Of a stretch of 64,000 bases of DNA, positions 43,001 through 64,000 are shown piece after piece. Made by a program: the position numbers and the translations under genes. The first letter of the stretch is position 1. Each line of letters starts with the position of its first letter. Source of the stretch: Amphiscolops sp. MND2022 (lineage: Eukaryota); contig OZ076409.1 of NCBI GenBank assembly GCA_964187785.1, positions 16,184,001 to 16,248,000 of the forward strand, written 5' to 3'. Below the pieces are notes generated by a model. It searched no databases and was not told the origin of the DNA. It saw nothing but the letters and a program-made list of their open reading frames with translations.

Positions 43001-43743
43001 TTACTTGCGTAACAGTGGTTTTAGGCGCACCACTAAGGGAAAAGATTATTCCAGTGCTTTTGAAAGACTGTCCACGCTGACTAAGTTATTTAAAAAAGTC
43101 TGATTGAGGGAATCGAACTCAAGACATTGGAATGGAAATCTAACACGCAACCACTACGCCATTGAATGTTGAAAAGATGTTAAAAATGGACCACGTTATT
43201 AGAAAGAGTCCAAAAATCCCTATGTTGAAAGATTTGCCGCCCTCCAAGGTAAGCATTTCAAATCAAAAATTGGACGAATTCAGAATGCTATGTTCGGTAT
43301 GTGTCAAATTAAACAACCAAGTTGGGTGCAATAACACTCTATCAATTCAAGTGCTGAACAAATTCCATCCCCGGGGACCGAACCCAAAGATACCAGAACA
43401 ACGCTATACCAAATCTAACCACCAACGCAACCTCTACGCCACGATATCTTGCGAAACAGTGGTTTTAGGCGCACCACTAAGGGAAAGATTATTCCAGTGC
43501 TTTTGAAAGACTGTCCCTGTTGACTAAGATATTAGAAAATTTTTGATTGAGGGAGTCCAACTCAAGACATTGGAATAGAAATCTAACACGCAACCACTTG
43601 GCCATTGATTGTTGAAAAGATGTGTAAAAATGGACAACGTTATTGGAAAGAGTCCAAAAATCCCTGTGTTGAAAGATTTGCCGCTTCCAAAGTAAGCATT
43701 CAAATTCAAATTTTAGACGAAATCAGAATGCTTTATTCGGTAT
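34085..43743. repeat. Tandem satellite, ~445-bp monomer, ~21-22 copies
   Basis: Recurring track ORFs at 444-448 bp spacing (42274, 42718, 43162; ends 38842, 39290, 39734). Confidence 0.97.
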
Positions 43744-44022
43744 AGTGTTTTTTCACACTCCTGAGTCGACTTTTGATAATACATGAAATTTCATATTTAA
43801 GCATACTAATTTATGCTTTTCAGCAAACATTTCCGTTATAGAGTCAAAATTTTGCTTTTTTTTTACAGATTTTCTAAAATAATTTGGTTTCATCGGATGT
43901 CAAAAACATGAAACTTTGTCTTTTTCTGGAAATTTCCCGCCAAAACAAGTTGTTGGCTGGTAATGGTAAGTCAGTACCGCAGATAGGGATCTCGCGCTCC
44001 AAAAATTGACTCTTTGCTTTTA

Positions 44023-44156
44023 GACTAATTGTTGTGATAAACCTATTAAATAGGTAAGTATTCCAACCCTATTGATAAGTTTTATTTGAAAGCAGACTGC
44101 GAAAGTGGTCTGCTGCCCAGTTTTTGAACAAGGAACAAGCTAGTCTGCACTAACTT
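44023..44156 (+). ncRNA. Putative SL RNA gene, variant copy
   Basis: 31-nt leader ending AAATAG|GTAAGT; substitutions in leader (GACTAA, AACCT) and Sm site (AGTTTTTG). Confidence 0.65.
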
Positions 44157-44248
44157 AAAAGTTACGCGTATTTCGACCGAAAAAATTTTCGTATCATTGT
44201 ACGTAATTTTGTTGTTAAGCATATAAAGCTATTGATTCTACAATGATC

Positions 44249-44367
44249 GGCTACGACCATACCATGTTGAATGCACCGGTTCTCGTCCGCTCACCGAAGT
44301 TAAACAACATAGGGCCTGGTTAGTACTTGGATGGGAGACCGCTTGGGAACACCAGGTGTTGTAGCCT
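44249..44367 (+). rRNA. 5S rRNA
   Basis: GGCTACGACCATACC...TAGTACTTGGATGGGAGACC...GTTGTAGCC then T-run; a few variants versus other copies. Confidence 0.97.
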
Positions 44368-45094
44368 TTTTTGTCAGAAATGTGGTTTAACTTCGGCGAC
44401 AGTTTTGCGAAAGGGGTCGAATTGAAAAGATAGCAAAAAACGGACAACGCCATTAGAAAGAGCGTCCAAAAAAACCCCCATGCTGAAATTTTCGCCGCCA
44501 TCACTTGAATTTTCATTGAGTTATGTCATTTTTACTATTTTCACAAAATGTGGTTTAACTTCGGTGACAGTTTTGCAAAAGGGGTAAAATTGAAAAGACA
44601 GCAAAAAACGGACAACGCCATTAGAAAGAGCGTCCAAAAAAACCCCCATGCTGAAATTTTCGCCGCCATCACTTGAATTTTCATTGAGTTATGTCATTTT
44701 TACTATTTTCACAAAATGTGGTTTAACTTCGGTGACAGTTTTGCAAAAGGGGTCAAAATGAACAGATTGCAAAAAACGGACAACGGCATTGGAAAGAGGG
44801 CCCAAAATTACCCCTAAAACGTGTTTTTCACACTCCTGAGTCGACTTTTGATAATACATGGAATTTCATTTTTAAGCTCACTAATTTATGCTTTTCAGCA
44901 TACATTTTCGTAATAGAGTCAAAATTTTGCTTTCTCACAATTTTTCTGGAATATTTTTGTTTCATCAGATGTCAATAACTTGAAACGTCGTCTTTTCATG
45001 AGAATTTCTCTTCAAAACAAGTTGTTGGCTGGTAATGGTAAGTCCGTACCGCAGATAGGACTATCGCGCTCCAAAAATTGACTCTTTGCTTTTA

Positions 45095-45228
45095 GCCTAA
45101 TTGTTGTGATAAACTTATTAAATAGGTAACTATTCCAACCCTATTGATAAGTTTTATTTGAAAGCAGACTGCGAAAGTGGTCTGAGGCCCAATTTTTGAA
45201 CAAGGAACAAGCTAGTCTGCACTAACTT
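45095..45228 (+). ncRNA. Putative SL RNA gene, variant copy
   Basis: Consensus leader; donor GTAACT; second hairpin altered (TCTGAGG); Sm site AATTTTTGA. Confidence 0.7.
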
Positions 45229-45320
45229 AAAAGTTACGCGTATTTTGACCGAGAAAATTTTCGTATCATTGTACGTAATTTTGTTGTTAAGCATATAAAG
45301 CTATTGATTCTACAATGATC

Positions 45321-45439
45321 GGCTACGACCATACCATGTTGAATGCACCGGTTCTCGTCCGATCACCGAAGTTAAACAACATAGGGCCTGGTTAGTACTT
45401 GGATGGGAGACCGTTTGGGAACACCAGGTGTTGTAGCCT
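45321..45439 (+). rRNA. 5S rRNA
   Basis: Canonical eukaryotic 5S sequence, T6 terminator. Confidence 0.98.
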
Positions 45440-46237
45440 TTTTTGTCAGAAATGTGGTTTAACTTCGGTGACAGTTTTGCAAAAGGGATCAAATTGAAAA
45501 GATAGCAAAAAACGGACAACGCCATTAGAAAGAGCGTCCAAAAAAACCCCCATGCTGAAATTTTCGCCGCCATCACTTGAATTTTCATTGAGTTATGTCA
45601 TTTTTACTATTTTCACAAAATGTGGTTTAACTTCGGTGACAGTTTTGAAAAAGGGGTCAAAATGAACAGATAGAAAAAAACGGACAACGGCATTGGAAAG
45701 AGGGCCCAAAATTACCCCTAAAACGTGTTTTTCACACTCCTGAGTCGACTTTTGATAATACATGGAATTTCATTTTTAAGCTTACTAATTTATGCTTTTC
45801 AGCATACATTTTCGTAATAGAGTCAAAATTTTGCTTTCTCACAATTTTTCTGGAATATTTTTGTTTCATCAGATGTCAATAACTTGAAACGTCGTCTTTT
45901 CATGAGAATTTCTCCTCAAAACAAGTTGTTGGCTGGTAATGGTAAGTCCGTACCGCAGATAGGACTCTCGCGCTCCAAAAATTGACTCTTTGCTTTTAGC
46001 CTAATTGTTGTGATATCCACGAGGCGTTACTCTGCCAAAATTGGAAATCTCTCATTTCTGAGTTAAATTAACTCAGCGAAACTGTCTTAAATTGTTTCTC
46101 TTCTTCAAACAACGTACCATTCTTACAAGCAATTTTATTGTACTGTATTAGAAAAACTACTGTTTTTCGAAACGTTACTTTAACTTTCTGGGCATTTTGC
46201 TCCTCATTGCCGACAAGGCAAACAATAATCCAACCTC

Positions 46238-48397
46238 ATGGATGAAACACCAACTCACGACAGTCAAAAGCCTTCGAAAACCTTGGATAATTCTCCACGA
46301 AATATTCGAAAAAACCAAGGTCAAAATTTCTTAGAAAATTCATTGGTTACAACAGGAGAAATTTCAAATACTTCGCCCAAATGTAGCAAAAAATTCTCGC
46401 CTTACAAATCACCGGCAGGCCATCCTAAAGAGGCGTCAATCTACACTTCGGATGGCAAATTTCAAGGCAGGGCTCCCCCTCAAAGCCCGAAAGACTCAAA
46501 GCGTAAAAACGCAAAAAACTTTACATCAAAAATTATCAACTCTCAGGAAACTATAAATGCCACAAACTTACCAAATTATCAACAACAACAGCCACAGTTA
46601 CCATTTACAACTCATCGATTGCCTCAAGACCCTAGCAAAAGAGTCAAAATGGTGGATTTCAACGAAGAAAATTTTACATGCAATTCTGGCCCAGAAATTA
46701 CGATAACGTATTCCGGCAACACACTGCAAAATAATATTACACCCACTTACACCAATGCAAAGCCAGCTCATCCTTCTACAACTGGCAACTCAAACTACAA
46801 CCCAAGGGAGGACTCTGGGCCAAATATCGCTCCAAACAACCCACCCAATGTGGAGAACGACCACAAAAACAAGAAAAATCCACTTCAAGAAAGTCAGGTA
46901 GAAAGCTATATTCCTACAACCCAAAACAACAAAAACTCTGAAGCTATTACTGTTGCGACCCAAATGCAACGTACTACGCTTCTCAATTTGCTAAATACAG
47001 GCCGATACGTTTCTCCTGAAGAACGTAGACGTATCCACAATGCTATTGAGGCAATAGCTAACGAAAGTTCCAGTAATGCCTTTAGTGAAATCTTTCCTGA
47101 ACTCTCTGCCCAGAATCAGCAAAAACAAACAAATGCTGATGACAGCAGTCATGCTACAAAACAACCAGCTTCCAACTACAATTCAAGAGCACTAGAACAA
47201 GCAATCGCTGCCACAATTAACGCCATAAACCCACCAGCTGAGGAACTATACACACAAACAATCAGAAATAGCGGATCCCCAAATGAATCAAAGAACAGCC
47301 ACCCACAATCCTACTCTCAGGCAACCTTTTCAAGGTCTCCTACCACGCAAGTGGTAAGCAAAATCCACAAGCTAAGAATAGTGCCTCCCTTGAGAAAAGA
47401 ACATTTCTCCAATAACAACACGTTGGAAGCCGAAATTACAAGAGCATACAAAGATATCCTAACAGCCTTCTCGCCAAATATACGAAATTTGATAACGATA
47501 TCACGAACCAACGTCAAAGTGGCAAACAAAACATACCAAGTCCTCCAGGTAATTGCTCCAGAAAGCGCTGAGCCAGACATTACCAGAATGAAACTGAATG
47601 GTCTAACGATCATGGGCAGAACTGTCTTTCCGACATCTGAGGACTTCTGGCAGGTCCGGAATTCATTCTACCCAAAAACACCGACCATACGAATCAGCAA
47701 TGTCCCAGTGCTATGCGATGACGATGCTCTAATTGAAGCTCTACAATTCCCATCATTCCTTGAATTTGGTCTAAAAGAAAGGGAAACAAAACAGACAGAA
47801 ATTGGCCCAGTTCATACTGGGAAAACTGCTATACAAATAAAGATAAACTCTGAAGATGAAGAAGCCGAGATGCGATCCTGGTCCTTTCATAAAGCCTACA
47901 CTTGCCCAGCAGAATGGCTAGGAGTCGAAATTCCAGCCAGCATACCGAAACTCCACATATGCAAGAAATGCAAAGAAGAAAAGATATCTCAATTCCGAGG
48001 CCACGAAGAGGAATGGTGCAGAATACGCAGAACCCCTCTCACTCCTCCAGTATCCGAAATCACAGAAGGGGCATCCACTAGCGTCATGCCTGAAGAAAGA
48101 AACAAAGCACAACTTCAATCAGTAGAAGCCCCAGGAGCCGAAAACATTCGGTCCGAAGATAGGCAGATCGACAGCGACAACCCAGATGAAGACGACTCTT
48201 CAGATAATCAAGATGACAACTGGCAAACAGTACAGAAGAAAGGACAGAAGAGAACCAAAAAGCAACCCTCAGAAGCTTCCAAAAACTCTCGAAACAGCAG
48301 CCCTGTGAAAGAACCCACCGCAAAGCAAGCAGCTCTACAACCAATCTGTATCAACAACAAACCCAACCCTCAAAAAACGGTAAATAATGATACTTAA
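46238..48397 (+). CDS. ORF1 protein (low-complexity N-terminus, RRM-like region, CCHC knuckle), 719 aa
   Basis: YPKTPTIRISNVP...HTGKTAIQI...CKKC-x10-H-x4-C; DNWQTVQKK basic tail as in L1/Tx1 ORF1. Confidence 0.9.
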   Translation: MDETPTHDSQKPSKTLDNSPRNIRKNQGQNFLENSLVTTGEISNTSPKCSKKFSPYKSPAGHPKEASIYTSDGKFQGRAPPQSPKDSKRKNAKNFTSKIINSQETINATNLPNYQQQQPQLPFTTHRLPQDPSKRVKMVDFNEENFTCNSGPEITITYSGNTLQNNITPTYTNAKPAHPSTTGNSNYNPREDSGPNIAPNNPPNVENDHKNKKNPLQESQVESYIPTTQNNKNSEAITVATQMQRTTLLNLLNTGRYVSPEERRRIHNAIEAIANESSSNAFSEIFPELSAQNQQKQTNADDSSHATKQPASNYNSRALEQAIAATINAINPPAEELYTQTIRNSGSPNESKNSHPQSYSQATFSRSPTTQVVSKIHKLRIVPPLRKEHFSNNNTLEAEITRAYKDILTAFSPNIRNLITISRTNVKVANKTYQVLQVIAPESAEPDITRMKLNGLTIMGRTVFPTSEDFWQVRNSFYPKTPTIRISNVPVLCDDDALIEALQFPSFLEFGLKERETKQTEIGPVHTGKTAIQIKINSEDEEAEMRSWSFHKAYTCPAEWLGVEIPASIPKLHICKKCKEEKISQFRGHEEEWCRIRRTPLTPPVSEITEGASTSVMPEERNKAQLQSVEAPGAENIRSEDRQIDSDNPDEDDSSDNQDDNWQTVQKKGQKRTKKQPSEASKNSRNSSPVKEPTAKQAALQPICINNKPNPQKTVNNDT

Positions 48398-51300
48398 TCT
48401 TGTTAATCTTGTATGTGTGAACATCAGAGGCCTTGCTAACCCAGCAAAGCTTCTCGAAATCTGTGAAAAAAGTAAAACCTTAGATAAAAACCAACAGTCA
48501 TGTATTTTCATACAAGAAACAAAATTAACCAAAATGAAGGAGGAACATATACGAATCTTAGAAAAATATAAACTAAAGAGTAAAGAGGTTCCTGCTACAG
48601 GAAACTCAGGGGGGCTTCTAACACTCATTCCAAAAAACATTGATCATCAAATACTCATGAAAAGCCTTAGCTGCCTTGCAGTGAAAATAATTAGAAATAA
48701 TTGTGAAATGGTCCTCGTTAACACATATATCAACCCCAAAGATTTCAAAGCTAGAAATTTCTGTGCGTCTATTCAGGAGCCAAACCTAAACCCATCCCAA
48801 AACATCCTCGTAGCAGGGGATTTGAATGCAATAGATGCTGAAGACATAGGAAAAACTAAAGAACTTTGCTACCCTATTAAAAACAACGATATCAGAGTAA
48901 TTCGTCATAAAATAATACAGTCTCATTCGAACTCTTTACTGTTAAAGGACATGGCAAAGGAACAAAATGAAATTTTACCGACACATTTCGATCGTAGAAC
49001 AAAAAAATTCAGCAGAATTGACTATGTCTTCAGCAACTATACGAATCAGAATCAGAAAATCGAAATTGTCAATTTCACGTCATCGGATCATAAGTGCCTC
49101 TTTTTAAAAAACCAGGAAGAAAACACCAATAATTCTCCCTCCTACTGGAAACTAAATGACTCTGTGCTGGACGATAGTAATCGCATTAATGAAATCCTGA
49201 AAACCTCAATTTCAAAGCTTCAGAACAAAAGCATGCTAACTGAAACATACGATGAATTTAAAGCAAGTATTAGAGATGACCTTCGGCAATTATGCATTGA
49301 AAAAAGAAATGCTGAAAACATTGTTGAAAAACAACTCAAAAATAACCTAAGACAACTTGAACTTAAACTTTCAGAGAGTGCAAATTCAATGGAATTAATT
49401 GCAAAAATCCAACAAGAAGTTGATCGAAAAAATGACGAGTTGGGCGTACTACTGGACAAACGCAACCAACAAGAACTGAAAAAAATAAAAAATTTCTTTA
49501 ACGAAGCCTTTGAAGGCAATCCTAAACATGTTAAACAATTAGTATCAGCCCTCCGTCTGAGCACAAGAATTTCAAAATTGGAAAAAGACAGCGGTGAAAA
49601 AATTCAATCTCAAAATGATATAGTTGCGGAACTAACCTCATTCTATAAAAAACTTTATCAGTACAATGCTCCTGGAAATCGAAGCACAACTGGGTCCTCC
49701 ATACAACAGAAGAAATACCTCGAGAAATACTTGAAAAGAATTGAGAATAGGCTTGCTACCTATGATAGGACGAATATAAATGAAGATGAAATCTTAGAAT
49801 ACGAAGTTGAAAAAGCAATTCTAAAACTGAATAAAAACAGTGCCCCAGGACCGGATGGTCTCACCGCTGGCCTTTTCCAAAATCAAATAAAATTCTTTGT
49901 GCCTTTGCTTACAGACCTATTTAATGAAATTTTAACTAAAAACCGGCCTCCTCCTTCATTTACTCTTGCAATAATCAAACTACTCCCGGAAAAATCTAAC
50001 ACAATAAAAAAAGCCTCTGATCTTAGGCCAATAAGTCTAATAAACACAGACCAAAAAATACTATCACACGTGCTAGCTAATCGAATCAAACCACTTTTTG
50101 ACACAATAATAGGACAACATCAATATGCTCATCTTACAGAACGAAATATCCACACTGCAATAACGAAAATTAGACAATATTCAACGTGCCTGAAGAAAAA
50201 CGACAGCTTATGCGCTCTAGATTTTACAAAAGCATTTGACTGCGTCAACAGGGACTTCCTAATTGCCATATTGAAACAACTACCAATATCAGAAACAACT
50301 ATAAAACTAATCGAGCAAGTATATAAAAACACAACATCCATCATTGACATCAACTCTGAATTCTCCGAACCAATAATTATTACAAAAGGGGTAAGACAAG
50401 GATGCCCCCTCTCTGCATTGCTCTTCATCCTAGTTATAGAACCTCTACTTGAAAAAATACAACGATCAAAAAAATTAAAAACACCAAATCATCAAAAAAT
50501 CATTGCCTTTGCAGATGATATAACAGTGTCCATCAAAAACAACTCAATAAACAATTTAATTAAAATCCTTGACGAGTTTGAAAATGTCTCTGGTCTCGCT
50601 ATTAATTACGAAAAGTCAGAGCTTCTAACCAAAAATCAAAAAATTTTATTCACAAACCCAGAAAAAAACTGAAAATTGTCAATCGAGTCAAAATCCTTGG
50701 AGTGTTCATAACAACAAAATCAAGTATAGACAGTGAAACAAAAAACAAGATCGACACAATTGTTAACCAATCAACAAAGTTCACCTCTCAAAACATGAGT
50801 TTCAGAGCCAGAGCTATTAACCTAGAAACATTCATTCTATCCAAAATATTCTACCAATTACGACACTTCGCGAAAAACAAATCATATATGAAAAAATTAA
50901 ACTCCAAAATAGTGGACCAGTTCTGGAATCATAAGAAACACAACGTTAATCAAGAAATTTTACATACCAGTAGACAAGAAAGCGGAATAGGACTAAAGAA
51001 TCTGAACAAAGCCGTAACAATAGCAAAAATCATGAATTTGAAAGTTTCCCTCCAAGGTAAAAACAATCAAAATAATCACAACGATTTCCAAGTTTCAAAC
51101 TGGTACAAGCAAATTGCAAAAGACCTGAAAAACGAAAACATTGAGATAATAGAAGTATCCAATGATACTCTAAAGATACAACACCTCTTTCAACCCATTG
51201 AAATAACCAGAAACACAAAATCGAGCGAAATTCTCTCAATAATACAAAAATCAACAATCAATATTGCATGCATCCCCCGTGTTGCAAAAACGGCCATGAA

Positions 51301-51706
51301 ACAAGGAATAACCATGGACTGTGTCCAGGGGGTTCTGGCAAAACTATGGAACAGAAAAAATCTACGATCATTTGATAAAAATTACATATACTGTTTCATG
51401 ATGAACGCCTACCTAGATAAACAAGAGAATTGGGGAAAAAACCTTGTTCCTCATCCTCTCTGCTTCCAATGCGGAACTCATTTCGAAACATTCAGTCATT
51501 TAATGTTTGACTGTCCACAAACACAGAACTTGAAAACAAAACTCAAATACACAAATTGGGATCAAGTCTGGAACGATAAAACAGGCAAATCACAAAAACT
51601 ACTAGTCGCCTTTATCCTATCGTCATGGTCGGAAGAAGAAGGGTCGTACCTAAAGTTTTTTCGAAACACGTATACTTCCAACTACCAACCACCTCAAGAA
51701 ACCTAA
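48387..51706 (+). CDS. ORF2 protein (AP endonuclease, RT, C-terminal Zn finger) with one frameshift near 50662-50668
   Basis: NIRGL, IQETK, AGDLN, SRIDY, SDH; APGPDG, RPISLIN, DFTKAFD, GVRQGCPLS, FADD; resumes in another frame as VKILGVF; CFQC..ETFSHLMFDC. Confidence 0.93.
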
Positions 51707-51970
51707 ACAGAGCCAACCGACACCCAAGCCGAAACACCCAAAACAACATAAAAAAACAAAAAAAAACTTCAAAAAAAAAACGAAAAAGTAATCCAGTTCA
51801 CACATACATCCTGAAGCATTTATATTATACTTATGTTACTCTCAGATTTTGTTGTACCATTTATTGTACCTTTTGTTACTTTTATTACCTATGTGGTTTT
51901 GTTGTACTTCCATTAGACTAAAGTTTGTAACATTTTTGTTAGCGTAAAGTTTACAATAAAGTCTTCAAAA

Positions 51971-52195: not shown

Positions 52196-52314
52196 GGCTA
52201 CGACCATACCATGTTGAATGCACCGGTTCTCGTCCGATCACCGAAGTTAAACAACATAGGGCCTGGTTAGTACTTGGATGGGAGACCGCTTGGGAACACC
52301 AGGTGTTGTAGCCT
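52196..52314 (+). rRNA. 5S rRNA
   Basis: Canonical 5S, T6 terminator. Confidence 0.98.
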
Positions 52315-52873
52315 TTTTTGTCAGAAATGTGGTTTAACTTCGGATACAGTTTTGCAAAAGGTGTCAAATTGAAAAGATAGCAAAAAACGGACAACGCCAT
52401 TAGAAAGAACGTCCAAAAAAACCCCCATGCTGAAATTTTCGCCGCCATCACTTGAATTTTCATTGAGTTATGTCATTTTTACTATTTTCACAAAATGTGG
52501 TTTAACTTCGGTGACAGTTTTGCAAAAGGGGTCAAAATGAACAGATAGCAAAAAACGGACAACGGCACTGGAAAGAGGGCCCAAAATTACCCCTAAAACG
52601 TGTTTTTCACACTCCTGAGTCGACTTTTGATAATACATGGAATTTCATTTTTAAGCTTACTAATTTATGCTTTTCAGCATACATTTTCGTAATAGAGTCA
52701 AAATTTTGCTTTCTCACAATTTTTCTGGAATATTTTTGTTTCATCAGATGTCAATAACTTGAAACGTCGTCTTTTCATGAGAATTTCTCCTCAAAACAAG
52801 TTGTTGGCTGGTAATGGTAAGTCCGTACCGCAGATAGGACTCTCGCGCTCCAAAAATTGACTCTTTGCTTTTA

Positions 52874-53007
52874 GCCTAATTGTTGTGATAAACTTATTAA
52901 ATAGGTAAGTATTCCAACCCTATTGATAAGTTTTATTTGAAAGCAGACTGCGAAAGTGGTCTGCTGCCCAATTTTTGAACAAGGAACAAGCTAGTCTGCA
53001 CTAACTT
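52874..53007 (+). ncRNA. Putative SL RNA gene, intact consensus copy
   Basis: Leader GCCTAATTGTTGTGATAAACTTATTAAATAG|GTAAGT; stem ATAAACTTATTAAATAGG/CCTATTGATAAGTTTTAT; GAAA-loop hairpin AGCAGAC..GTCTGCT; Sm site AATTTTTGA; 3' hairpin; ends approximate. Confidence 0.8.
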
Positions 53008-53099
53008 AAAAGTTACGCGTATTTTGACCGAGAAAATTTTCGTATCATTGTACGTAATTTTGTTGTTAAGCATATAAAGCTATTGATTCTACAATGATC

Positions 53100-53218
53100 G
53101 GCTACGACCATACCATGTTGAATGCACCGGTTCTCGTCCGATCACCGAAGTTAAACAACATAGGGCCTGGTTAGTACTTGGATGGGAGACCGCTTGGGAA
53201 CACCAGGTGTTGTAGCCT
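53100..53218 (+). rRNA. 5S rRNA
   Basis: Canonical 5S, T6 terminator; TATAAA about 27 nt upstream. Confidence 0.98.
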
Positions 53219-53794
53219 TTTTTGTCAGAAATGTGGTTTAACTTCGGTGACAGTTTTGCAAAAGGGGTAAAATTGAAAAGATAGCAAAAAACGGACAACG
53301 CCATTAGAAAGAGCGTCCAAAAAAACCCCCATGCTGAAATTTTCGCCGCCATCACTTGAATTTTCATTGAGTTATGTCATTTTTACTATTTTCACAAAAT
53401 GTGGTTTAACTTCAATGACAGTTTTGCAAAAGGAGTCAAAATGACCAGATAGCAAAAAACGGACAACGGCATTGGAAAGAGGGCCCAAAATTACCCCTAA
53501 AACGTGTTTTTCACACTCCTGAGTCGACTTTTGATAATACATGGAATTTCATTTTTAAGCTTACTAATTTATGCTTTTCAGCATACATTTTCGTAATAGA
53601 GTCAAAATTTTGCTTTCTCGCAATTTTTCTGGAATAAGTTTGTTTCATCAGATGTCAATAACTTGAAACGTCGTCTTTTCATGAGAATTTCTCCTCAAAA
53701 CAAGTTGTTGGCTGGTAATGGTAAGTCCGTACCGCAGATAGGACTCTCGCGCTCCAAAAATTGACTCTTTGCTTTTAGCCTAATTGTTGTGATA

Positions 53795-55777
53795 CGGCGT
53801 TACTCTGTCAGCCTGCAAACTTTGTTTGCACAGCGCCATCTTGCAAATTTTGCAGCAAAAGTTGCAAAAGTAATGACTAATTTGAACACGAGTGAGCTTG
53901 ATCAACATCATAATGAAAATGTTGAGCAAAATTGTTACAAAAATGCAGTTATTTCCTTGTCGAAATCGAACTCAAATATGGACAAATTACCAATTATTAT
54001 CAACTTTGCCTTACCACTGACATCTGAAATGTTCAAAAACAGCAAATTACTGGATTCAATGTTTGTGGAAGCTGTTATGGCCGTCAAAAACCGACTTAAC
54101 TCCAATGAAATTACCATCTTCAAAACTACAATTTTACGCAACAAAGGCAATTTGAAGTGTATTACTGTGATCATTCCTTAAAAACTTGAAAATGCAGCTT
54201 CCTCTCTTATTCACGAGGGCATTACTCTTCGCAATCGGAAAATACGGCCTTATTCTGTCAATTATTCCAACCCGAACAACAATGTCTATCCAAAAAGATT
54301 ACCAATATCTTTCCGAAACCTACCACACTTTCTGACGGATGAGGATATTTTGAGTAGCTGTGGTCTTCAAAACTTCAAATTTAGTAGCAAAATTTTTCAT
54401 CAACAACGACGACTTCCTGATAGCAGCCTTTTTTATACAGGAGAGGCAAGAATTACAGTTTTAATTGACAATGAGAATGAGGAAAGTTTACTACAAAACT
54501 GGGCCAATAATGCATATGACAAAATGTTTAGTTCCAGTGGCATTTTTTTCAAATGTTGCTGTATCCCACTCCTCGAATGCTCTTTATGCGTCAATGAGAA
54601 CCTTCCCAGTGCTCATCAACAATCAAGATGCCCAAAACAACTATCAGACGAACAGCAAATACAGAAAAACAGTGAATCTCAGAACCAGAAGTTAACAACT
54701 GACTACGTTATGGAAACTGCAGAAACAGAGCCAATGTCTAATGAACCTGAACTGTCAGATTCAGATGATGCTGAACCAATCTCAAAGGCACCAAAGCAGA
54801 CCGATGATGGTACTGAAACCGAATGCAACAACAACGTGGCAGAAACTGAACAACCATGCATTAACAACTCAAAGAAAGATACCATTCCTATGCAAAAACC
54901 TAAACTAATGCATCGCTCAACTGAATGGAAATCCTCAACAGACCTTGCCCGAAATCAAGCAGATGACCAACAGTCAACGGCAAAGCATGGATATCATGAA
55001 TACCCATTCTTTTTGGAAAAGAAACAAAACAAAATACTGGCACCCGAAACTATTTTCAACGAAATACCTCCTATAAAAGAACATGTGATCAAAACCCAAC
55101 AAACTTCTGGCTACATCAATACACTAGACAAGGAAAAGAAAATTCAAAGGACCTTTTCACTCGTACAACCACTGAAGAAAGAAAAACTCGAAGATCTTTT
55201 ATCTGAATCAAACTGGAAACATTCTGACTCTAACACTATTTTAACTTCTCATTTGGAATTTTACTCATTGATCCGGAAGTTTGATCCATTCTATGATGCT
55301 ACAAACCACCAAATTTACACTATTAATCTGGAGAATAAAATTGTACAAGTTTTCACTGCAGTTGAAAACTTATACAATGAAAACAAAAACTAAACTGAAA
55401 AATTTCGGACCTTTTCGACTGGAACTTTAAAGTTCTAAATCTCTACAATACCATCATCAATCAACCCAATTCCCAATTCTTTTCGAGCACTAGTTGTTCG
55501 CAACCTGTATGCAAAAAACGGGTTTTGAAAACAAACTCCTTCCAGGAGCAAACATCTTTTTTCATACATTCTCCAAACTACATTATACTAACTTCATACC
55601 TAAAAAAAAAACATTCCCATTTTGGCGCTTTCTCAAAAATGCCATAACCAAGCATCTTCATCTACATACTTCAGCTTTTTCAACACTTCAGTTACTCATA
55701 TACTCATTTTATACCTATACCTTAGACTTCATTACTTTTTACTTGTAAATTCTCAGTTTTCAATAAATTCTTTAAAA
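53795..55777 (+). mobile_element. Non-autonomous ORF1-only retroelement, family A copy 1
   Basis: Perfect 17-bp TSD 53778-53794 and 55778-55794; no RT or endonuclease; AATAAA..TTTAAAA end. Confidence 0.9.
53873..55393 (+). pseudogene. Family A ORF1-like gene with one premature stop
   Basis: TAA at 54179-54181 where copy 2 has TAC; otherwise colinear with 60578-62098. Confidence 0.88.
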
Positions 55778-55914
55778 GCCTAATTGTTGTGATAAACTTA
55801 TTAAATAGGTAAGTATTCCAACCCTATTGATAAGTTTTATTATTTGAAAGCAGACTGCGAAAGTGGTCTGCTGCCCAATTTTTGAACAAGGAACAAGCTA
55901 GTCTGCACTAACTT
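55778..55914 (+). ncRNA. Putative SL RNA sequence downstream of insertion
   Basis: Consensus with 3-nt insertion (TTATTATTTG). Confidence 0.65.
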
Positions 55915-56006
55915 AAAAGTTACGCGTATTTTGACCGAGAAAATTTTCGTATCATTGTACGTAATTTTGTTGTTAAGCATATAAAGCTATTGATTCTACA
56001 ATGATC

Positions 56007-56125
56007 GGCTACGACCATACCATGTTGAATGCACCGGTTCTCGTCCGATCACCGAAGTTAAACAACATAGGGCCTGGTTAGTACTTGGATGGGAGACCGC
56101 TTGGGAACACCAGGTGTTGTAGCCT
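56007..56125 (+). rRNA. 5S rRNA
   Basis: Canonical 5S. Confidence 0.98.
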
Positions 56126-56701
56126 TTTTTGTCAGAAATGTGGTTTAACTTCGGTGACAGTTTTGCAAAAGGGGTCAAATTGAAAAGATAGCAAAAAACG
56201 GACAACGCCATTAGAAAGAGCGTCCAAAAAAACCCCCATGCTGAAATTTTCGCCGCCCTCACTTGAATTTTCATTGAGTTATGTCATTTTTACTATTTTC
56301 ACAAAATGTGGTTTAACTTCGGTGACAGTTTTGCAAAAGGGGTCAAAATGAACAGATAGCAAAAAACGGACAACGGCATTGGAAAGAGGGCCCAAAATTA
56401 CCCCTAAAACGTGTTTTTCACACTCCTGAGTCGACTTTTGATAATACATGGAATTTCATTTTTAAGCTTACTAATTTATGCTTTTCAGCATACATTTTCG
56501 TAATAGAGTCAAAATTTTGCTTTCTCGCAATTTTTCTGGAATATTTTTGTTTCATCAGATGTCAATAACTTGAAACGTCGTCTTTTCATGAGAATTTCTC
56601 CTCAAAACAAGTTGTTGGCTGGTAATGGTAAGTCCGTACCGCAGATAGGACTCTCGCGCTCCAAAAATTGACTCTTTGCTTTTAGCCTAATTGTTGTGAT
56701 A

Positions 56702-58132
56702 CTGCGGTAGCAGCAATTATTTGACCAAATTCATTCTCTCTCGCATCTGCTGAGGCAGGGACGATTATCTCACTTGAAAGAATGCCTAATTTCCTTACAT
56801 TGGACTTTATAATACCTTACTCCAAAGAAGAAATTACTAATCCTTCTCTAAAGCTTGTTACTTACAAAAGCTTTCTTTGCTCGTTACTTAAATGTTTACC
56901 TAGTGACGCTGTTAAACGCGTGACCTGCATGAAATCGCACGTGTACAAACATGCGCCGCACGAAAAGAAACTTGAGAGCGTCAAAGTTATCGGTCCAATT
57001 TCATTACAAAACGAGTTTAATTCCATTATTTCTGATGGAATTTTGTTCAAAACTCGCAAGATTTATGCTCTACAAAACCATGATGTTACGTCCAATGCTT
57101 ACCCCAAGCAATTTACGATCAAATTTCGTAATTTACCACACTTCTTTTCTGATACCGATGTTATTTCGGCTTGCAATTTGAAAGATTTCAAACTTTCAAA
57201 GTTACGACACCAATTAGAGAAACTTTCTGAGGAAATTGAAACCTACACAGGCATTTGTTATGCGGATGTGGAAATCCAGGACGAAGCCCAATTACAACAG
57301 CTCATTTCATGGAATGAAACCAGCTTTTTGAACAAATACTATCTAGAAGAAATTCCATTTAAATGCCAAATTCAAATATTACTACAATGCGATTTCTGCA
57401 AACAAAAGAAGCTCCAGTTTTTGGGGCACCATGTACGCCAATGCAAAGCCAAAAAGACACAATTAGAACCAGAATCTGAGGAAGATAGCATCTCAACTAC
57501 GAAAACAAATGAAGAAAAAGAACTAGAAGCCACAGATGCAAACAAGAATAACCCAGAACATACTTTCTATATTGATTTAGAAAAATGCCAAATTCGAAAC
57601 ATACATGACATGGACGAACTCCATAAAGGATTTAGCAAGCTTCTTGCTTTACAGGAATGCAAGCCTGTGAATGTCTTGAATGACAACAATATAGTGATAA
57701 ACCAACTACGACATGTGAAGAATATTACTGAAGAAAAACAGCGGAAGCTTTTCAAACAACAAAACATATGGGGAAGTCCTTCATCAGACGTCCCAATCAA
57801 GAACTTCTCAGAGTTTTGTGAACTCCGGGGAAAGCTAGATGTGTTCTACGACTCAACAAAAGGCGAAGAAACCCTTTACCTGATGAACCTATCCAAGAAA
57901 GTGACCCACATTTTCAAAAAGAAACAACAACCAAACTAACAAAACTACATTATACTAATTTTCAAACTTTGATTTCCATGTTAAATCAAAACTCTCATAT
58001 TATACAATCATCACCAAGTCTTTCATTTACTTAATACTATAAGTATGCTAAGTTATTCATACTCAACACTTTAGTATTAATGTAAAGACTATTTGATTTA
58101 TAAAGGCAAATTTCCAAATACATTCTTTAAAA
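56702..58132 (+). mobile_element. Non-autonomous ORF1-only retroelement, family B copy 1
   Basis: TSD 56685-56701 and 58133-58149; single ORF; TTCTTTAAAA end. Confidence 0.9.
56782..57939 (+). CDS. Family B ORF1-like protein, 385 aa
   Basis: YPKQFTIKFRNLPHF, YTGICYADV, CDFC-x9-H-x4-C, plus C-terminal domain shared with family A. Confidence 0.88.
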   Translation: MPNFLTLDFIIPYSKEEITNPSLKLVTYKSFLCSLLKCLPSDAVKRVTCMKSHVYKHAPHEKKLESVKVIGPISLQNEFNSIISDGILFKTRKIYALQNHDVTSNAYPKQFTIKFRNLPHFFSDTDVISACNLKDFKLSKLRHQLEKLSEEIETYTGICYADVEIQDEAQLQQLISWNETSFLNKYYLEEIPFKCQIQILLQCDFCKQKKLQFLGHHVRQCKAKKTQLEPESEEDSISTTKTNEEKELEATDANKNNPEHTFYIDLEKCQIRNIHDMDELHKGFSKLLALQECKPVNVLNDNNIVINQLRHVKNITEEKQRKLFKQQNIWGSPSSDVPIKNFSEFCELRGKLDVFYDSTKGEETLYLMNLSKKVTHIFKKKQQPN

Positions 58133-58149
58133 GCCTAATTGTTGTGATA

Positions 58150-59579
58150 CTGCGGTAGCAGCAATTATTTGACCAAATTATTCTCTCTCGCATCTGCTGA
58201 GGCAGGGACGATTATCTCACTTGAAAGAATGCCTAATTTCCTTACATTGGACTTTATAATACCTTACTCCAAAGAAGAAATTACTAATCCTTCTCTAAAG
58301 CTTGTTACTTACAAAAGCTTTCTTTGCTCGTTACTTAATTGTTTACCTAGTGACGCTGTTAAACGCGTGACCTGCATGAAATCGCACGTGTACAAACATG
58401 CGCCGTACGAAAAGAAACTTGAGAGCGTCAAAGTTATCGGTCCAATTTCATTACAAAACCAGTTTAATTCCATTATTTCTGATGGAATTTTGTTCAAAAA
58501 TCGCAAGATTTATGCTCTACAAAACCATGATGTTACGTCCAATGCTTACCCCAAGCAATTTACGATCAAATTTCGTAATTTACCACACTTCTTTCCTGAT
58601 ACCGATGTTATTTCGGCTTGCAATTTGAAAGATTTCAAACTTTCAAAGTTACGACACCAATTAGAGAAACTTTCTGAGGAAATTGAAACCTACACAGGCA
58701 TTTGTTATGCGGATGTGGAAATCCAGGACGAAGCCCAATTACAACAGCTCATTTCATGGAATGAAACCAGCTTTTTGAACAAATACTATCTAGAAGAAAT
58801 TCCATTTAAATGCCAAATTCAAACATTACTACAATGCGATTTCTGCAGACAAAAGAAGCTCCAGTTTTTGGGGCACCATGTACGCCAATGCAAAGCCAAA
58901 AAGACACAATTAGAACCAGAATCTGAGGAAGATAGCATCTCAACCACGAAAACAAATGAAGAAAAAGAACTAGAAGCCACAGATGCAAACAAGAATAACA
59001 CAGAACATACTTTCTATATTGATTTAGAAAAATGCCAAATTCGAAACATACATGACATGGACGAACTCCATAAAGGATTTAGCAAGCTTCTTGCTTTACA
59101 GGAATGCAAGCCTGTGAATGTCTTGAATGACAACAATGTAGTGATAAACCAACTACGACATGTGAAGAATATTACTGAAGAAAAACAGCGGAAGCTTTTC
59201 AAACAACAAAACAGATGGGGAAGTCCTTCATCAGACGTCCCAATCAAGAACTTCTCAGAGTTTTGTGAACTCCGGGGAAAGCTAGATGTGTTCTACGACT
59301 CAACAAAAGGCGAAGAAACCCTTTACCTGATGAACCTATCCAAGAAAGTGACCCACATTTTCAAAAAGAAACAACAACCAAACTAACAAAACTACATTAT
59401 ACTAATTTTCAAACTTTGATTTCCATGTTAAATCAAAACTCTCATATTATACAATCATCACCAAGTCTTTCATTTACTCAATACTATAAGTATGCTAAGT
59501 TATTCATACTCAACACTTTAGTATTAATGTAAAGACTATTTGATTTATAAAGGCAAATTTCCAAATACATTCTTTAAAA
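58150..59579 (+). mobile_element. Non-autonomous ORF1-only retroelement, family B copy 2 (tandem)
   Basis: TSD 58133-58149 and 59580-59596; near-identical to copy 1. Confidence 0.9.
58229..59386 (+). CDS. Family B ORF1-like protein, 385 aa
   Basis: First ATG at 58229 (track starts at an upstream TTG); 10 aa differences from copy 1. Confidence 0.88.
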   Translation: MPNFLTLDFIIPYSKEEITNPSLKLVTYKSFLCSLLNCLPSDAVKRVTCMKSHVYKHAPYEKKLESVKVIGPISLQNQFNSIISDGILFKNRKIYALQNHDVTSNAYPKQFTIKFRNLPHFFPDTDVISACNLKDFKLSKLRHQLEKLSEEIETYTGICYADVEIQDEAQLQQLISWNETSFLNKYYLEEIPFKCQIQTLLQCDFCRQKKLQFLGHHVRQCKAKKTQLEPESEEDSISTTKTNEEKELEATDANKNNTEHTFYIDLEKCQIRNIHDMDELHKGFSKLLALQECKPVNVLNDNNVVINQLRHVKNITEEKQRKLFKQQNRWGSPSSDVPIKNFSEFCELRGKLDVFYDSTKGEETLYLMNLSKKVTHIFKKKQQPN

Positions 59580-59713
59580 GCCTAATTGTTGTGATAAACT
59601 TATTAAATTGGTAAGTATTCCAACCCTATTGATAAGTTTTATTTGAAAGCAGACTGCGAAAGTGGTCTGCTGCCCAATTTTTGAACAAGGAACAAGCTAG
59701 TCTGCACTAACTT
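59580..59713 (+). ncRNA. Putative SL RNA sequence downstream of insertion
   Basis: Leader ends AAATTG|GTAAGT (variant); hairpins and Sm site intact. Confidence 0.65.
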
Positions 59714-59805
59714 AAAAGTTACGCGTATTTTGACCGAGAAAATTTTCGTATCATTGTACGTAATTTTGTTGTTAAGCATATAAAGCTATTGATTCTACAA
59801 TGATC

Positions 59806-59924
59806 GGCTACGACCATACCATGTTGAATGCACCGGTTCTCGTCCGATCACCGAAGTTAAACAACATAGGGCCTGGTTAGTACTTGGATGGGAGACCGCT
59901 TGGGAACACCAGGTGTTGTAGCCT
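59806..59924 (+). rRNA. 5S rRNA
   Basis: Canonical 5S. Confidence 0.98.
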
Positions 59925-60499
59925 TTTTTGTCAGAAATGTGGTTTAACTTCGGTGACAGTTTTGCAAAAGGGGTCAAATTGAAAAGATAGCAAAAAACGG
60001 ACAACGCCATTAGAAAGAGCGTCCAAAAAAACCCCCATGCTGAAATTTTCGCCGCCATCACTTGAATTTTCATTGAGTTATGTCATTTTTACTATTTTCA
60101 CAAAATGTGGTTTAACTTCGGTGACAGTTTTGCAAAAGGGGTCAAAATGAACAGATAGCAAAAAACGGACAACGGCATTGGAAAGAGGGCCCAAAATTAC
60201 CCCTAAAACGTGTTTTTCACACTCCTGAGTCGACTTTTGATAATACATGGAATTTCATTTTAAGCTTACTAATTTATGCTTTTCAGCATACATTTTCGTA
60301 ATAGAGTCAAAATTTTGCTTTCTCGCAATTTTTCTGGAATATTTTTGTTTCATCAGATGTCAATAACTTGAAACGTCGTCTTTTCATGAGAATTTCTCCT
60401 CAAAACAAGTTGTTGGCTGGTAATGGTAAGTCCGTACCGCAGATAGGACTCTCGCGCTCCAAAAATTGACTCTTTGCTTTTAGCCTAATTGTTGTGATA

Positions 60500-62480
60500 C
60501 GGCGTTACTCTGTCAGCCTGCAAACTTTGTTTGCACAGCGCCATCTTGCAAATTTTGCAGCAAAAGTTGCAAAAGTAATGACTAATTTGAACACGAGTGA
60601 GCTTGATCAACATCATAATGAAAATGTTGAGCAAAATTGTTACAAAAATGCAGTTATTTCCTTGTCGAAATCGAACTCAAATATGGACAAATTACCAATT
60701 ATTATCAACTTTGCCTTACCACTGACATCTGAAATGTTCAAAAACAGCAAATTACTGGATTCAATGTTTGTGGAAGCTGTTATGGCTGTCAAAAACCGAC
60801 TTAACTCCAATGAAATTACCATCTTCAAAACTACAATTTTACGCAACAAAGGCAATTTGAAGTGTATTACTGTGATCATTCCTTACAAACTTGAAAATGC
60901 AGCTTCCTCTCTTATTCACGAGGGCATTACTCTTCGCAATCGGAAAATACGGCCTTATTCTGTCAATTATTCCAACCCGAACAACAATGTCTATCCAAAA
61001 AGATTACCAATATCTTTCCGAAACCTACCACACTTTCTGACGGATGAGGAAATTTTGAGTAGCTGTGGTCTTCAAAACTTCAAATTTAGTAGCAAAATTT
61101 TTCATCAACAACGACGACTTCCTGATAGCAGCCTTTTTTATACAGGAGAGGCAAGAATTACAGTTTTAATTGACAATGAGAATGAGGAAAGTTTACTACA
61201 AAACTGGGCCAATAATGCATATGACAAAATGTTTAGTTCCAGTGGCATTTTTTTCAAATGTTGCTGTATCCCACTCCTCGAATGCTCTTTATGCGTCAAT
61301 GAGAACCTTCCCAGTGCTCATCAACAATCAAGATGCCCAAAACAACTATCAGACGAACAGCAAATACAGAAAAACAGTGAATCTCAGAACCAGAAGTTAA
61401 CAACTGACTACGTTATGGAAACTGCAGAAACAGAGCCAATGTCTAATGAACCTGAACTGTCAGATTCAGATGATGCTGAACCAATCTCAAAGGCGCCAAA
61501 GCAGACCGATGATGGTACTGAAACCGAATGCAATAACAACGTGGCAGAAACTGAACAACCATGCATTAACAACTCAAAGAAAGATACCATTCCTATGCAA
61601 AAACCTAAACTAATGCATCGCTCAACTGAATGGGAATCCTCAACAGACCTTGCCCGAAATCAAGCAGATGACCAACAGTCAACGGCAAAGCATGGATATC
61701 ATGAATACCCATTCTTTTTGGAAAAGAAACAAAACAAAATACTGGCACCCGAAACTATTTTCAACGAAATACCTCCTATAAAAGAACATGTGATCAAAAC
61801 CCAACAAACTTCTGGCTACATCAATACACTAGACAAGGAAAAGAAAATTGAAAGGACCTTTTCACTCGTACAACCACTGAAGAAAGAAAAACTCGAAGAT
61901 CTTTTATCTGAATCAAACTGGAAACATTCTGACTCTAACACTATTTTAACTTCTCATTTTGAATTTTACTCATTGATCCGGAAGTTTGACCCATTCTATG
62001 ATGCTAAAAACCACCAAATTTACACTATTAATCTGGAGAATAAAACTGTACAAGTTTTCACTGCAGTTGAAAACTTATACAATGAAAACGAAAACTAAAC
62101 TGAAAAAATTCGGACCTTTTTGACTGGAACTTTAAAGTTCTAAATCTCTACAATACCATCATCAATCAACCCAATTCCCAATTCTTTTCGAGCACTAGTT
62201 GTTCGCAACCTGTATGCAAAAAACGGGTTTTGAGAACAAACTCCTTCCAGGAGCAAACATCTTTTTTCATACATTCTCCAAACTACATTATACTAACTTC
62301 ATACCAAAAAAAAACATTCCCATTTTGGCGCTTTCTCAAAAATGCCATAACCAAGCATCTTCATCTACATACTTAAGTTTTTTCAACACTTCAGTTACTC
62401 ATATACTCATTTTATACATATACCTTAGACTTCATTACTTTTTACTTGTAAATTCTCAGTTTTCAATAAATTCTTTAAAA
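60500..62480 (+). mobile_element. Non-autonomous ORF1-only retroelement, family A copy 2
   Basis: Perfect TSD 60483-60499 and 62481-62497. Confidence 0.9.
60578..62098 (+). CDS. Family A ORF1-like protein, 506 aa from first ATG
   Basis: YPKRLPISFRNLPHF, YTGEARITV, CSLC-x8-H-x4-C, acidic linker, C-terminal domain; track start GTG lies inside the TSD. Confidence 0.88.
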   Translation: MTNLNTSELDQHHNENVEQNCYKNAVISLSKSNSNMDKLPIIINFALPLTSEMFKNSKLLDSMFVEAVMAVKNRLNSNEITIFKTTILRNKGNLKCITVIIPYKLENAASSLIHEGITLRNRKIRPYSVNYSNPNNNVYPKRLPISFRNLPHFLTDEEILSSCGLQNFKFSSKIFHQQRRLPDSSLFYTGEARITVLIDNENEESLLQNWANNAYDKMFSSSGIFFKCCCIPLLECSLCVNENLPSAHQQSRCPKQLSDEQQIQKNSESQNQKLTTDYVMETAETEPMSNEPELSDSDDAEPISKAPKQTDDGTETECNNNVAETEQPCINNSKKDTIPMQKPKLMHRSTEWESSTDLARNQADDQQSTAKHGYHEYPFFLEKKQNKILAPETIFNEIPPIKEHVIKTQQTSGYINTLDKEKKIERTFSLVQPLKKEKLEDLLSESNWKHSDSNTILTSHFEFYSLIRKFDPFYDAKNHQIYTINLENKTVQVFTAVENLYNENEN

Positions 62481-62614
62481 GCCTAATTGTTGTGATAAAC
62501 TTATTAAATAGGTAAGTATTCCAACCCTATTGATAAGTTTTATTTGAAAGCAGACTGCGAAAGTGGTCTGCTGCCCAATTTTTGAACAAGGAACAAGCTA
62601 GTCTGCACTAACTT
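62481..62614 (+). ncRNA. Putative SL RNA sequence downstream of insertion
   Basis: Consensus leader, donor, hairpins, Sm site. Confidence 0.65.
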
Positions 62615-62706
62615 AAAAGTTACGCGTATTTTGACCGAGAAAATTTTCGTATCATTGTACGTAATTTTGTTGTTAAGCATATAAAGCTATTGATTCTACA
62701 ATGATC

Positions 62707-62825
62707 GGCTACGACCATACCATGTTGAATGCACCGGTTCTCGTCCGATCACCGAAGTTAAACAACATAGGGCCTGGTTAGTACTTGGATGGGAGACCGC
62801 TTGGGAACACCAGGTGTTGTAGCCT
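62707..62825 (+). rRNA. 5S rRNA
   Basis: Canonical 5S. Confidence 0.98.
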
Positions 62826-63401
62826 TTTTTGTCAGAAATGTGGTTTAACTTCGGTGACAGTTTTGCAAAAGGGGTCAAATTGAAAAGATAGCAAAAAACG
62901 AACAACGCCATTAGAAAGAGCGTCCAAAAAAACCCCCATGCTGAAATTTTCGCCGCCATCACTTGAATTTTCATTGAGTTATGTCATTTTTACTATTTTC
63001 ACAAAATGTGGTTTAACTTCGGTGACAGTTTTGCAAAAGGGGTCAAAATGAACAGATAGCAAAAAACGGACAACGGCACTGGAAAGAGGGCCCAAAATTA
63101 CCCCTAAAACGTGTTTTTCACACTCCTGAGTCGACTTTTGATAATACATGGAATTTCATTTTTAAGCTTACTAATTTATGCTTTTCAGCATACATTTTCG
63201 TAATAGAGTCAAAATTTTGCTTTCTCGCAATTTTTCTGGAATATTTTTGTTTCATCAGATGTCAATAACTTGAAACGTCGTCTTTTCATGAGAATTTCTC
63301 CTCAAAACAAGTTGTTGGCTGGTAATGGTAAGTCCGTACCGCAGATAGGACTCTCGCGCTCCAAAAATTGACTCTTTGCTTTTAGCCTAATTGTTGTGAT
63401 A

Positions 63402-64000
63402 CTGCGTGTGTCAGCAATTATTTGCTAACTCTACTCTCACTGCTGCGGCAGAGAAGACGAAAATTACCTGAACAATGCCTTTATTGACAGCAGAATTCAT
63501 CATTCCTTACACAAAAGAAGAAATTACCAGCCCAAACATAAAGCAAGCTGTTTACAAAGAATTCCTTTGCAAGCTTTTACATGCTTTATCGCCTACTCAT
63601 ATTGACAGCGTGACATGCATTAAATCGTATGTGTCCAAACATGCGCCAGCGCATGAGCATGAAAAGAAGCTTGAATGCATCAAAATTATTGCTCCAAACT
63701 CGATAGAAAACGACTTCAAAAACCTACTTCTTAAAGGAATTCCTTACAAAAACCGGATAATTTATGCATTCCAAAACAGTGATGTTTATTCTAACTCCTA
63801 CCCAAAGCAATTCACTTTGAAATTCCGCAATTTACCACACTTTTTAGAAGATGGAGAGATCGTGGAGGCTTGTAATCTGCAAGAGTACAAAATTTCCAAA
63901 TTACGCCACCAAAGAGTAAGAATTTCTGACGACATCGAAGCCTTTACTGGAATCTGTTATGCTGAAATAGAGATTGCCAATCAATGCCAATTAGAAAACA
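63402..64000 (+). mobile_element. Family C insertion (related to B), truncated by window end
   Basis: Starts right after GCCTAATTGTTGTGATA (63385-63401); 5' end CTGCG..CAGCAATTATTTG resembles family B. Confidence 0.85.
63475..64000 (+). CDS. Family C ORF1-like protein, partial (absent from ORF track)
   Basis: Hand translation MPLLTAEFIIPYTKEEITSP...YPKQFTLKFRNLPHFL...FTGICYAEI, open to window end; colinear with family B. Confidence 0.85.
   Translation, partial: MPLLTAEFIIPYTKEEITSPNIKQAVYKEFLCKLLHALSPTHIDSVTCIKSYVSKHAPAHEHEKKLECIKIIAPNSIENDFKNLLLKGIPYKNRIIYAFQNSDVYSNSYPKQFTLKFRNLPHFLEDGEIVEACNLQEYKISKLRHQRVRISDDIEAFTGICYAEIEIANQCQLEN

Follow-up and report, generated by a model that had tools for sequence, protein, structure and literature searches.

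An acoel spliced-leader RNA gene linked to 5S rDNA as apparent base-exact target of an L1-group LINE and of ORF1-only elements

Acoel trans-splicing of a spliced leader (SL) is already in print. The genome paper of Symsagittifera roscoffensis (PMC9911081; preprint bioRxiv 10.1101/2022.08.27.505549) reports, in its accessible text, 10,433 trans-spliced genes (30.2%) and a leader that consists of the 31 nt of the gene described below plus one A. SL RNA and 5S rRNA genes within one repeat unit are described from C. elegans and from copepods (PMC4664967), and the accessible part of a review calls such linkage infrequent. SL genes have also been recognized as insertion targets: CRE-clade retrotransposons (SLACS of trypanosomes) and NeSL of nematodes insert in them and carry a restriction-like endonuclease (PMC1635306, PMC4640811). 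Target-specific elements with an AP-type endonuclease are placed in Tx1 and R1, and the portions of these accounts at hand list no SL target for either clade. Tx1L and Keno are Tx1-clade LINEs, of which Keno inserts in U2 snRNA genes; Mutsu, which targets 5S in zebrafish, we take to be a further member of the Tx1 clade. Finally, HAL1 (half-L1) is described as a non-autonomous L1 derivative encoding only ORF1p (PMC5753468).

Here we analyse a 64-kb stretch of acoel DNA (in the following "the window", always at its full length) in which these themes meet. We are confident in reading it as follows: an acoel SL RNA gene, whose leader is used on many 5' ends, lies in a tandem unit with 5S rDNA, and this leader is the exact insertion site of an L1-group LINE and of three ORF1-only families likely borrowing its reverse transcriptase (RT). 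A first-pass annotation of this DNA had proposed the SL gene and its linkage to 5S in a 904-bp unit and had overlooked that site-specific retrotransposons flank this unit on either side.

The SL exon occupies positions 52873-52904 on the plus strand and measures 31 nt if counted from G52874, or 32 nt if counted from A52873. As the first-pass annotation had described, the 31 nt of 52874-52904 are devoid of ATG and end in AG, followed by GTAAGT. This splice donor (52905-52910, plus strand) is recognized by its sequence, and transcript-like contigs part from the genomic sequence exactly there; GTAAGT also follows the leader in the outside contigs L047 and L065, and GCAAG in L030. The last 20 nt of the leader occur seven times in the window at no more than two mismatches, compared to zero times in 100 shuffles, and a search of public metagenome contigs with this 20-mer yielded at least 120 loci (about 120 estimated in all). 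Of the 120 listed loci, 104 have the 20-mer no more than 45 nt from the 5' end of the contig, and these 104 continue after the predicted AG with 104 distinct 20-mers, none of which begins with the genomic GTAAG. Where at least 900 nt follow (69 of these loci), the longer ORF lies on the sense strand in 68 cases, and a sense ORF of at least 150 aa is present in 67. All five leader-headed loci scanned for protein families returned one (kinase, thioredoxin, UEV, carrier, epimerase). Ten downstream proteins were looked up and nine found; five share a 90% cluster with a RefSeq protein from S. roscoffensis or Convolutriloba macropyga, and no other species is named in the clusters. These contigs, which are called transcript-like by their form, derive from acoels, perhaps not from the species of the window. 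The leader is joined at the AG (junction at 52904) to the 5' ends of many different, unrelated coding sequences, the gene in the window is an SL RNA gene, and the trans-splicing that had been proposed from its layout is supported by the presence of the leader on the 5' ends of transcript-like contigs.

The leader, which acoels share, marks the window as acoel DNA, and in the literature text searched its 20-mer occurs only in the preprint and the journal version of the S. roscoffensis genome. The printed leader has an extra 3' A, which in the window lies outside the exon and which is explained by A being the commonest first base past the junction (A 76, G 17 and T 11 among the 104 loci). No viral contig matched the leader pattern. 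Two bacterial genome contigs did, L121, to which we return below, and L122, which looks like a chance match; L048 and L051, with no match beyond the 20-mer, were likewise treated as chance.

The SL RNA probably starts at A52873 rather than at G52874, judging from where sequence identity sets in: in 11 metagenome loci that embed the leader in longer DNA, the stretch exactly matching the window begins between 52870 and 52879, in three of them at 52873. Against this, seven transcript-like contigs reach 1-10 nt farther upstream than 52873, as expected from bridging during assembly or from a longer leader. Farther upstream, a block at 52841-52858 (plus strand) has 16 of 18 bases in common with L065 between diverging flanks and may be a promoter element of snRNA type. 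In the window, L065 and L003 alike, the bases just upstream of the leader (52855-52874) resemble a 3' splice site, with a motif similar to a branch point, a run of pyrimidines and AG, and GCTTTTAG is identical among the three. Three transcript-like contigs begin exactly at 52867.

Six inserts, which belong to four families (A, B, C and D), interrupt the array, each situated right after nucleotide 17 of a leader. The 17-nt leader pieces in front of them start at 45999, 53778, 56685, 58133, 60483 and 63385, and behind each of the five complete inserts the leader begins anew from nucleotide 1. Accordingly, all five show a target duplication of 17 bp, or 18 bp if a shared A is included, with one mismatch in the duplication that follows element A. 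Their 3' ends are alike as well: each reads CTTYAAAA and has AATAAA or AATACA 15 nt ahead of it, and the tails comprise only 3-4 A. Elsewhere in the 64-kb window no match to any of the inserts was found. Two outside contigs, L030 and L047, encode ORF2 C-termini 42-49% identical to that of element A, and both elements stop, with the same tail, at nucleotide +1 of the leader in an SL gene. Insertion specificity is seen in one window and in these two contigs, which were found through the leader itself and therefore are mute on how often the family inserts elsewhere. The copies B1 and B2 (99.0% identical) and C1 and C2 (99.1%) may be array duplications, leaving four independent insertions. C2 sits in the leader rebuilt behind C1, the two being separated by a single 17-bp leader piece (58133-58149), which suggests that the native upstream DNA is not needed for targeting.

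In the mechanism that we propose, an AP-type endonuclease would nick at two points, leader +1 on the bottom strand and +17/18 on the top strand, and the duplication of 17-18 bp would then arise through target-primed reverse transcription. Each element would thereby come to lie directly downstream of the SL promoter and be transcribed from it, and the SL gene rebuilt behind the insert would be complete, cut off from its native upstream DNA and likely silent. The duplication could also have another source, which we regard as possible without favouring it: element RNA started at the SL promoter would carry leader nucleotides 1-17/18, and its cDNA would anneal to the target, so that the 5' leader piece would be copied from RNA and not generated by staggered cuts. 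All six 5' junctions are precise, the length of the duplication is constant across four families, and the duplication begins at the inferred transcription start, as such copying would have it. However, a sequence-specific endonuclease with two fixed cuts also yields a duplication of fixed length; the same pattern is expected from both processes, and both may act together.

Regarding the SL RNA itself, a predicted stem-loop I (52890-52933, plus strand) pairs the leader with the intron and places the donor at the end of its 5' arm, and a predicted GAAA-capped hairpin II (52942-52965, plus strand) is identical in L065, L030 and L047. Both are present in every fold that includes them, so that the long stem-loop around the donor and the GAAA-capped hairpin of the first-pass annotation stand as predictions. 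The fold of 52874-53007 has a z-score of -2.3, a level that four of 200 shuffles attain. Eight near-identical aligned SL genes show a two-sided (compensatory) change in none of 28 consensus pairs, so the structure is a predicted one.

Two segments, at about even odds, are candidates for the Sm site. The first, AGTTTTATTTGA (52929-52940, plus strand), is invariant in six of six aligned genes and agrees in 10 of 12 bases with the Sm site given for Schistosoma mansoni (PMC7986045); its 5' half is paired in the minimum free energy (MFE) fold and takes 3.9 kcal/mol to open. The second, AATTTTTGA (52970-52978, plus strand), was the one originally claimed; it is indeed present, fits AT{4,6}G and has a mean unpaired probability of 0.73, and it now shares the claim to an Sm role with the first. 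Its middle bases differ in L065 and L030, with the purine ends kept, and in these two it fits only the looser purine-pyrimidine-purine pattern of copepod SL RNAs.

Three of the 16 listed leader loci that do not lie at contig 5' ends are SL genes (L065, L030 and L047). L065 is identical to the window over 52867-52972 and 78% identical over 513 bp; past 52972, L065 and L030 diverge from the window and keep only TGAACA. The final hairpin that had been claimed (~52989-53007) is missing from the MFE in three of four long folds and is not kept in L065 and L030, and for this reason the claimed RNA of ~134 nt is probably too long. A length of ~100-110 nt is probable from these comparisons, and the accessible text of the S. 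roscoffensis preprint (bioRxiv 10.1101/2022.08.27.505549) describes a conserved SL region of ~100 bp. An RNA of 134 nt with three hairpins and with its Sm site at 52970-52978 would be in keeping with a site that fits AT{4,6}G, is mostly unpaired and still conforms to the looser copepod pattern in L065 and L030, but we consider it unlikely, given the end of L065 identity at 52972, the third hairpin not being kept, the ~100 bp of the preprint and a distance of ~65 nt between donor and Sm site, outside the SLIDR default of 20-60. For the shorter RNA preferred here, Pol II would transcribe a capped molecule (~100-110 nt) from an upstream promoter of snRNA type, Sm proteins would bind it and the spliceosome would transfer the leader.

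None of the Rfam models for SL RNAs, U snRNAs or snoRNAs reaches its cut-off in the window, and a U snRNA or snoRNA identity of the gene, which the first-pass annotation had named as a possible refutation, is rejected on these grounds; over 52320-53099, five matches at E <=10 score 12-20 bits as against cut-offs of 38-53. ARAGORN found no tRNA, and a scan for bacterial promoters, which is not applicable to this DNA, found nothing.

The 5S rRNA gene downstream (53100-53218, plus strand) scores 117.5 bits with Rfam RF00001 (cut-off 38) and is followed by a T run, likely a Pol III terminator; Pol III would transcribe it independently, from an internal promoter. It starts 226 bp after the leader start at 52874 on the same strand, exactly as first annotated. 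The window holds seven full-length 5S copies (RF00001, 113.7-117.5 bits), and no other Rfam family attains its cut-off there. The 904-bp unit of 5S, spacer and SL gene (52196-53099, plus strand), whose spacer includes two 168-bp subrepeats, is the sole uninterrupted one. Its spacing from 52196 to 53100 is real, but a regular array of 904-bp units is not: the six distances from 5S to 5S are 1072, 6875, 904, 2907, 3799 and 2901 bp. Two more SL-5S units with native upstream DNA (44023-45439, plus strand) have mutated SL genes, the one at 44023 with changes in the leader and in the second Sm candidate, the one at 45094 with a GTAACT donor and a changed hairpin II. Behind the inserts, SL genes are regenerated with a 5S gene of their own at 55777-56125 (plus strand) and likewise at 51970, 59579 and 62480, none of them with native upstream DNA. 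Native upstream DNA is present in three of the seven SL copies of the window, and among these three only the copy at 52874 is unchanged. Counting SL genes by leader match would thus overstate the working genes, since one of seven copies here is both unchanged and behind native upstream DNA.

In L065, too, a 5S gene of the same orientation follows ~207 bp from the start of the leader, and the linkage therefore recurs in a relative (78% identical). The SL-5S linkage is real and represents another case of a known arrangement, which we did not find in print for acoels: our literature search returned none, the main texts of the S. roscoffensis paper and preprint do not contain '5S rRNA', and '5S rDNA' gave no hit for this work in the literature search, while a figure or the supplements may show flanking 5S genes or the ends of the RNA.

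Other repeats of the window are related to this array. The spacer at 44368-45094 has a third 168-bp subrepeat, which makes a 1072-bp unit. A tandem array at 34091-43748 consists of ~22 copies of ~447 bp, none with an Rfam or tRNA match, and each repeat holds ~75 bp that are 74-82% similar to the 168-bp subrepeat of the SL-5S spacer. Finally, an orphan copy of the SL upstream spacer (30755-31423, ~92% identical) stops at leader nucleotide 3 and gives way to unrelated DNA.

The inserts could also be untargeted, i.e. ordinary dispersed LINEs that hit the array on one or two occasions and were then multiplied by unequal crossing-over, next to an SL gene that is nonetheless real. The 99% identity of B1 to B2 and of C1 to C2 and the alignment of 52873-57266 with 59579-63965 at 95% would agree with such a history. 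We hold it to be very improbable, since the ORF1s of A, B, C and D are only 23-56% identical and therefore do not stem from one insertion, yet share a junction equal to the base, and two further divergent elements (L030 and L047) stop at the same base in other DNA.

Element A (46016-51970, plus strand) has two ORFs. Its ORF1 measures 719 aa from the first Met; ORF2, whose frame is broken once, comprises an N-terminal AP-type endonuclease, an RT and a C-terminal zinc finger (Pfam RVT_1, E 3e-32; Exo_endo_phos, E 4e-4; zf-RVT, E 2e-3), where the endonuclease and zinc-finger scores fall under the curated cut-offs and the endonuclease is covered by the alignment to human ORF2p. The best solved relative is this human LINE-1 ORF2p (E 5e-51, residues 11-748), while similarity to R2 proteins is confined to the RT (E 8e-25). 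By its ORF1, AP endonuclease, RT, zinc finger and target duplication, element A classifies as an L1-group (L1/Tx1) LINE. The broken ORF2 frame means that this copy cannot be the active donor, unless the break is a sequencing error. An RT search found 488 relatives, the nearest of them unnamed, and a search among longer proteins returned only distant ones (<=33%). The proteins of L030 and L047 correspond to P0040 (98.9%) and P0041 (100%), which in a quick RT tree fall with element A in a branch of 13 rows (SH-aLRT 99), itself inside a branch of 37 rows without named elements (SH-aLRT 96). This tree, which retained 80 of 145 rows after thinning (five of 149 proteins having been dropped as short) and includes no curated Tx1 reference, does not separate a Tx1 from an L1 placement of element A and gives no support for the sister of the 37-row branch.

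The remaining inserts encode an ORF1 only. B1 (53795-55777, plus strand, 1983 bp) contains one in-frame stop; B2 (60500-62480, plus strand, 1981 bp) has an intact ORF of 506 aa. C1 and C2, in tandem at 56702-59579 (plus strand), measure 1431 and 1430 bp and encode 385 aa each. Of D, the 5' part only (63402-64000, plus strand) precedes the end of the window; it is ORF1-like, with 56% amino-acid identity to C. No trace of ORF2 was detected in B and C (tblastn, E 1), nor in D in the part before the window ends, and none of the three families matches element A in nucleotides. Their ORFs align to the ORF1 of A at 23-27% (E 6e-8 to 5e-12) and are 28-56% identical to one another. A C-x2-C...H-x4-C motif is kept in B and in C, D ending before it, and B and C have a C-terminal region in common that is absent from the ORF1 of A. 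No Pfam family is matched by any of the five B, C and D ORFs. The model of the element C protein (mean pLDDT 77.9, pTM 0.38) matches tandem RRM proteins (best E 4e-4). The ORF1 profile gave no match to a frog LINE polyprotein with ZCCHC3-type domains (P0004; hhalign probability 0.2%), and in the Atlas ORF1 has leads at 0.87-0.90, some of them CCHC and ZCCHC3-type clusters, with a recognition value below threshold. Element C has eight homologues (44-97% identity, 321-403 aa), three of them encoded by contigs that, at 1372-1648 nt, match element C in length. Over its 175 residues D equals the 387-aa proteins of a cluster with 36 members.

As B, C and D are without an RT, they likely borrow that of element A or of a relative. 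Each would coat its RNA with the ORF1 protein that it encodes and obtain ORF2 in trans by way of the common 3' tail (CTTYAAAA with AATAAA or AATACA 15 nt ahead of it). That they are immobile instead, either genes kept by the host or old deletion remnants of element A, as the five ORFs without a Pfam match and the C-terminal region of B and C missing in A's ORF1 might intimate, is very improbable, for each complete ORF1-only insert comes with a target duplication of its own and ends in the common 3' tail, none of the families is similar to A in nucleotides, and close copies are many (clusters of 36 and 13 members).

The window contains mobile elements of other types as well. A degenerate gypsy-type LTR element (14422-30600, plus strand) has gag, RT, RNase H and integrase, and its broken frames match the viral fusion glycoprotein family PF24664 (E 6e-21 and 2e-5); a second, fragmented one (5903-10360, minus strand) has RT, RNase H and integrase.

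In the metagenome contigs the leader appears in yet another association. In 12 loci (L017, L026, L027, L038, L058, L068, L084, L087, L089, L093, L099 and L121) a whole or nearly whole leader lies inside longer DNA and is joined at AG to ORFs. Families of AP endonucleases are matched by four of 11 scanned loci (L017, L026, L068 and L121), a set that includes L043 and omits L093 and L099, and two of the four also match a PHD finger. These leader-headed loci have the appearance of trans-spliced LINEs, copied back with the leader still on their 5' end. L121, a leader-headed, LINE-like contig, was binned with a bacterial genome (Poribacteria) and likely represents animal contamination of this bin.

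Neither an SL-targeting element with an AP-type endonuclease nor trans-spliced LINEs were found in the literature searched, with Repbase and most subscription journals outside the search, and on balance we expect that the targeted LINE and the ORF1-only families are undescribed in the form stated here. The broader picture, towards which we lean with some reserve, is that acoels harbour a third, independent SL-targeting lineage, which would be the first to use an AP-type endonuclease: a radiation of the L1 group, cutting at the SL transcription start, taking over the SL promoter and supporting old ORF1-only satellites at the same base, while other acoel LINEs apparently are trans-spliced and copied back with the leader. 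If this is true, the SL system has been exploited in two ways, as an insertion target and via trans-spliced LINEs, and SL genes have become a target for the third time, here of another enzyme class. The insertions would moreover provide an AP-type endonuclease from nature whose site, within a short known sequence, is exact to the base, a case relevant to how such enzymes gain specificity, and ORF1-only elements that keep this specificity would allow a test of whether ORF1 or the 3' tail decides trans-mobilisation. In the SL part the 5S linkage and the corrected gene model are what is added to the published trans-splicing; the insertions matter more.

Compared with the described systems, the SL gene itself is closest to that of S. 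roscoffensis, which, in the accessible text, has the same 31-nt leader, multiple genes and a conserved region of ~100 bp. The SL-5S units of C. elegans and of copepods, as far as their accounts are accessible, have the same layout of SL and 5S genes in a repeat unit; however, they belong to other phyla, and their leaders are unrelated to that of the window. CRE/SLACS and NeSL, in the portions available, resemble element A in their target, the SL genes of a multicopy array, but carry a restriction-like endonuclease downstream of the RT, whereas element A has an AP-type endonuclease upstream of the RT and a separate ORF1. We therefore reject element A as a member of the CRE/NeSL type; its endonuclease is of another kind and its nearest relative among solved structures is L1, so that the SL target was reached independently. 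Tx1-clade LINEs, as represented in the same partial sources, agree with element A in the AP-type endonuclease, in belonging to the L1 group and in a fixed site within a multicopy gene for a small RNA. HAL1, a dispersed element, is comparable to B and C, in what its description makes available, in encoding an ORF1 homologue while lacking ORF2. The families B, C and D depart from it in being three, 28-56% identical to each other and 23-27% identical to the ORF1 of the neighbouring LINE, that have one base-exact target.
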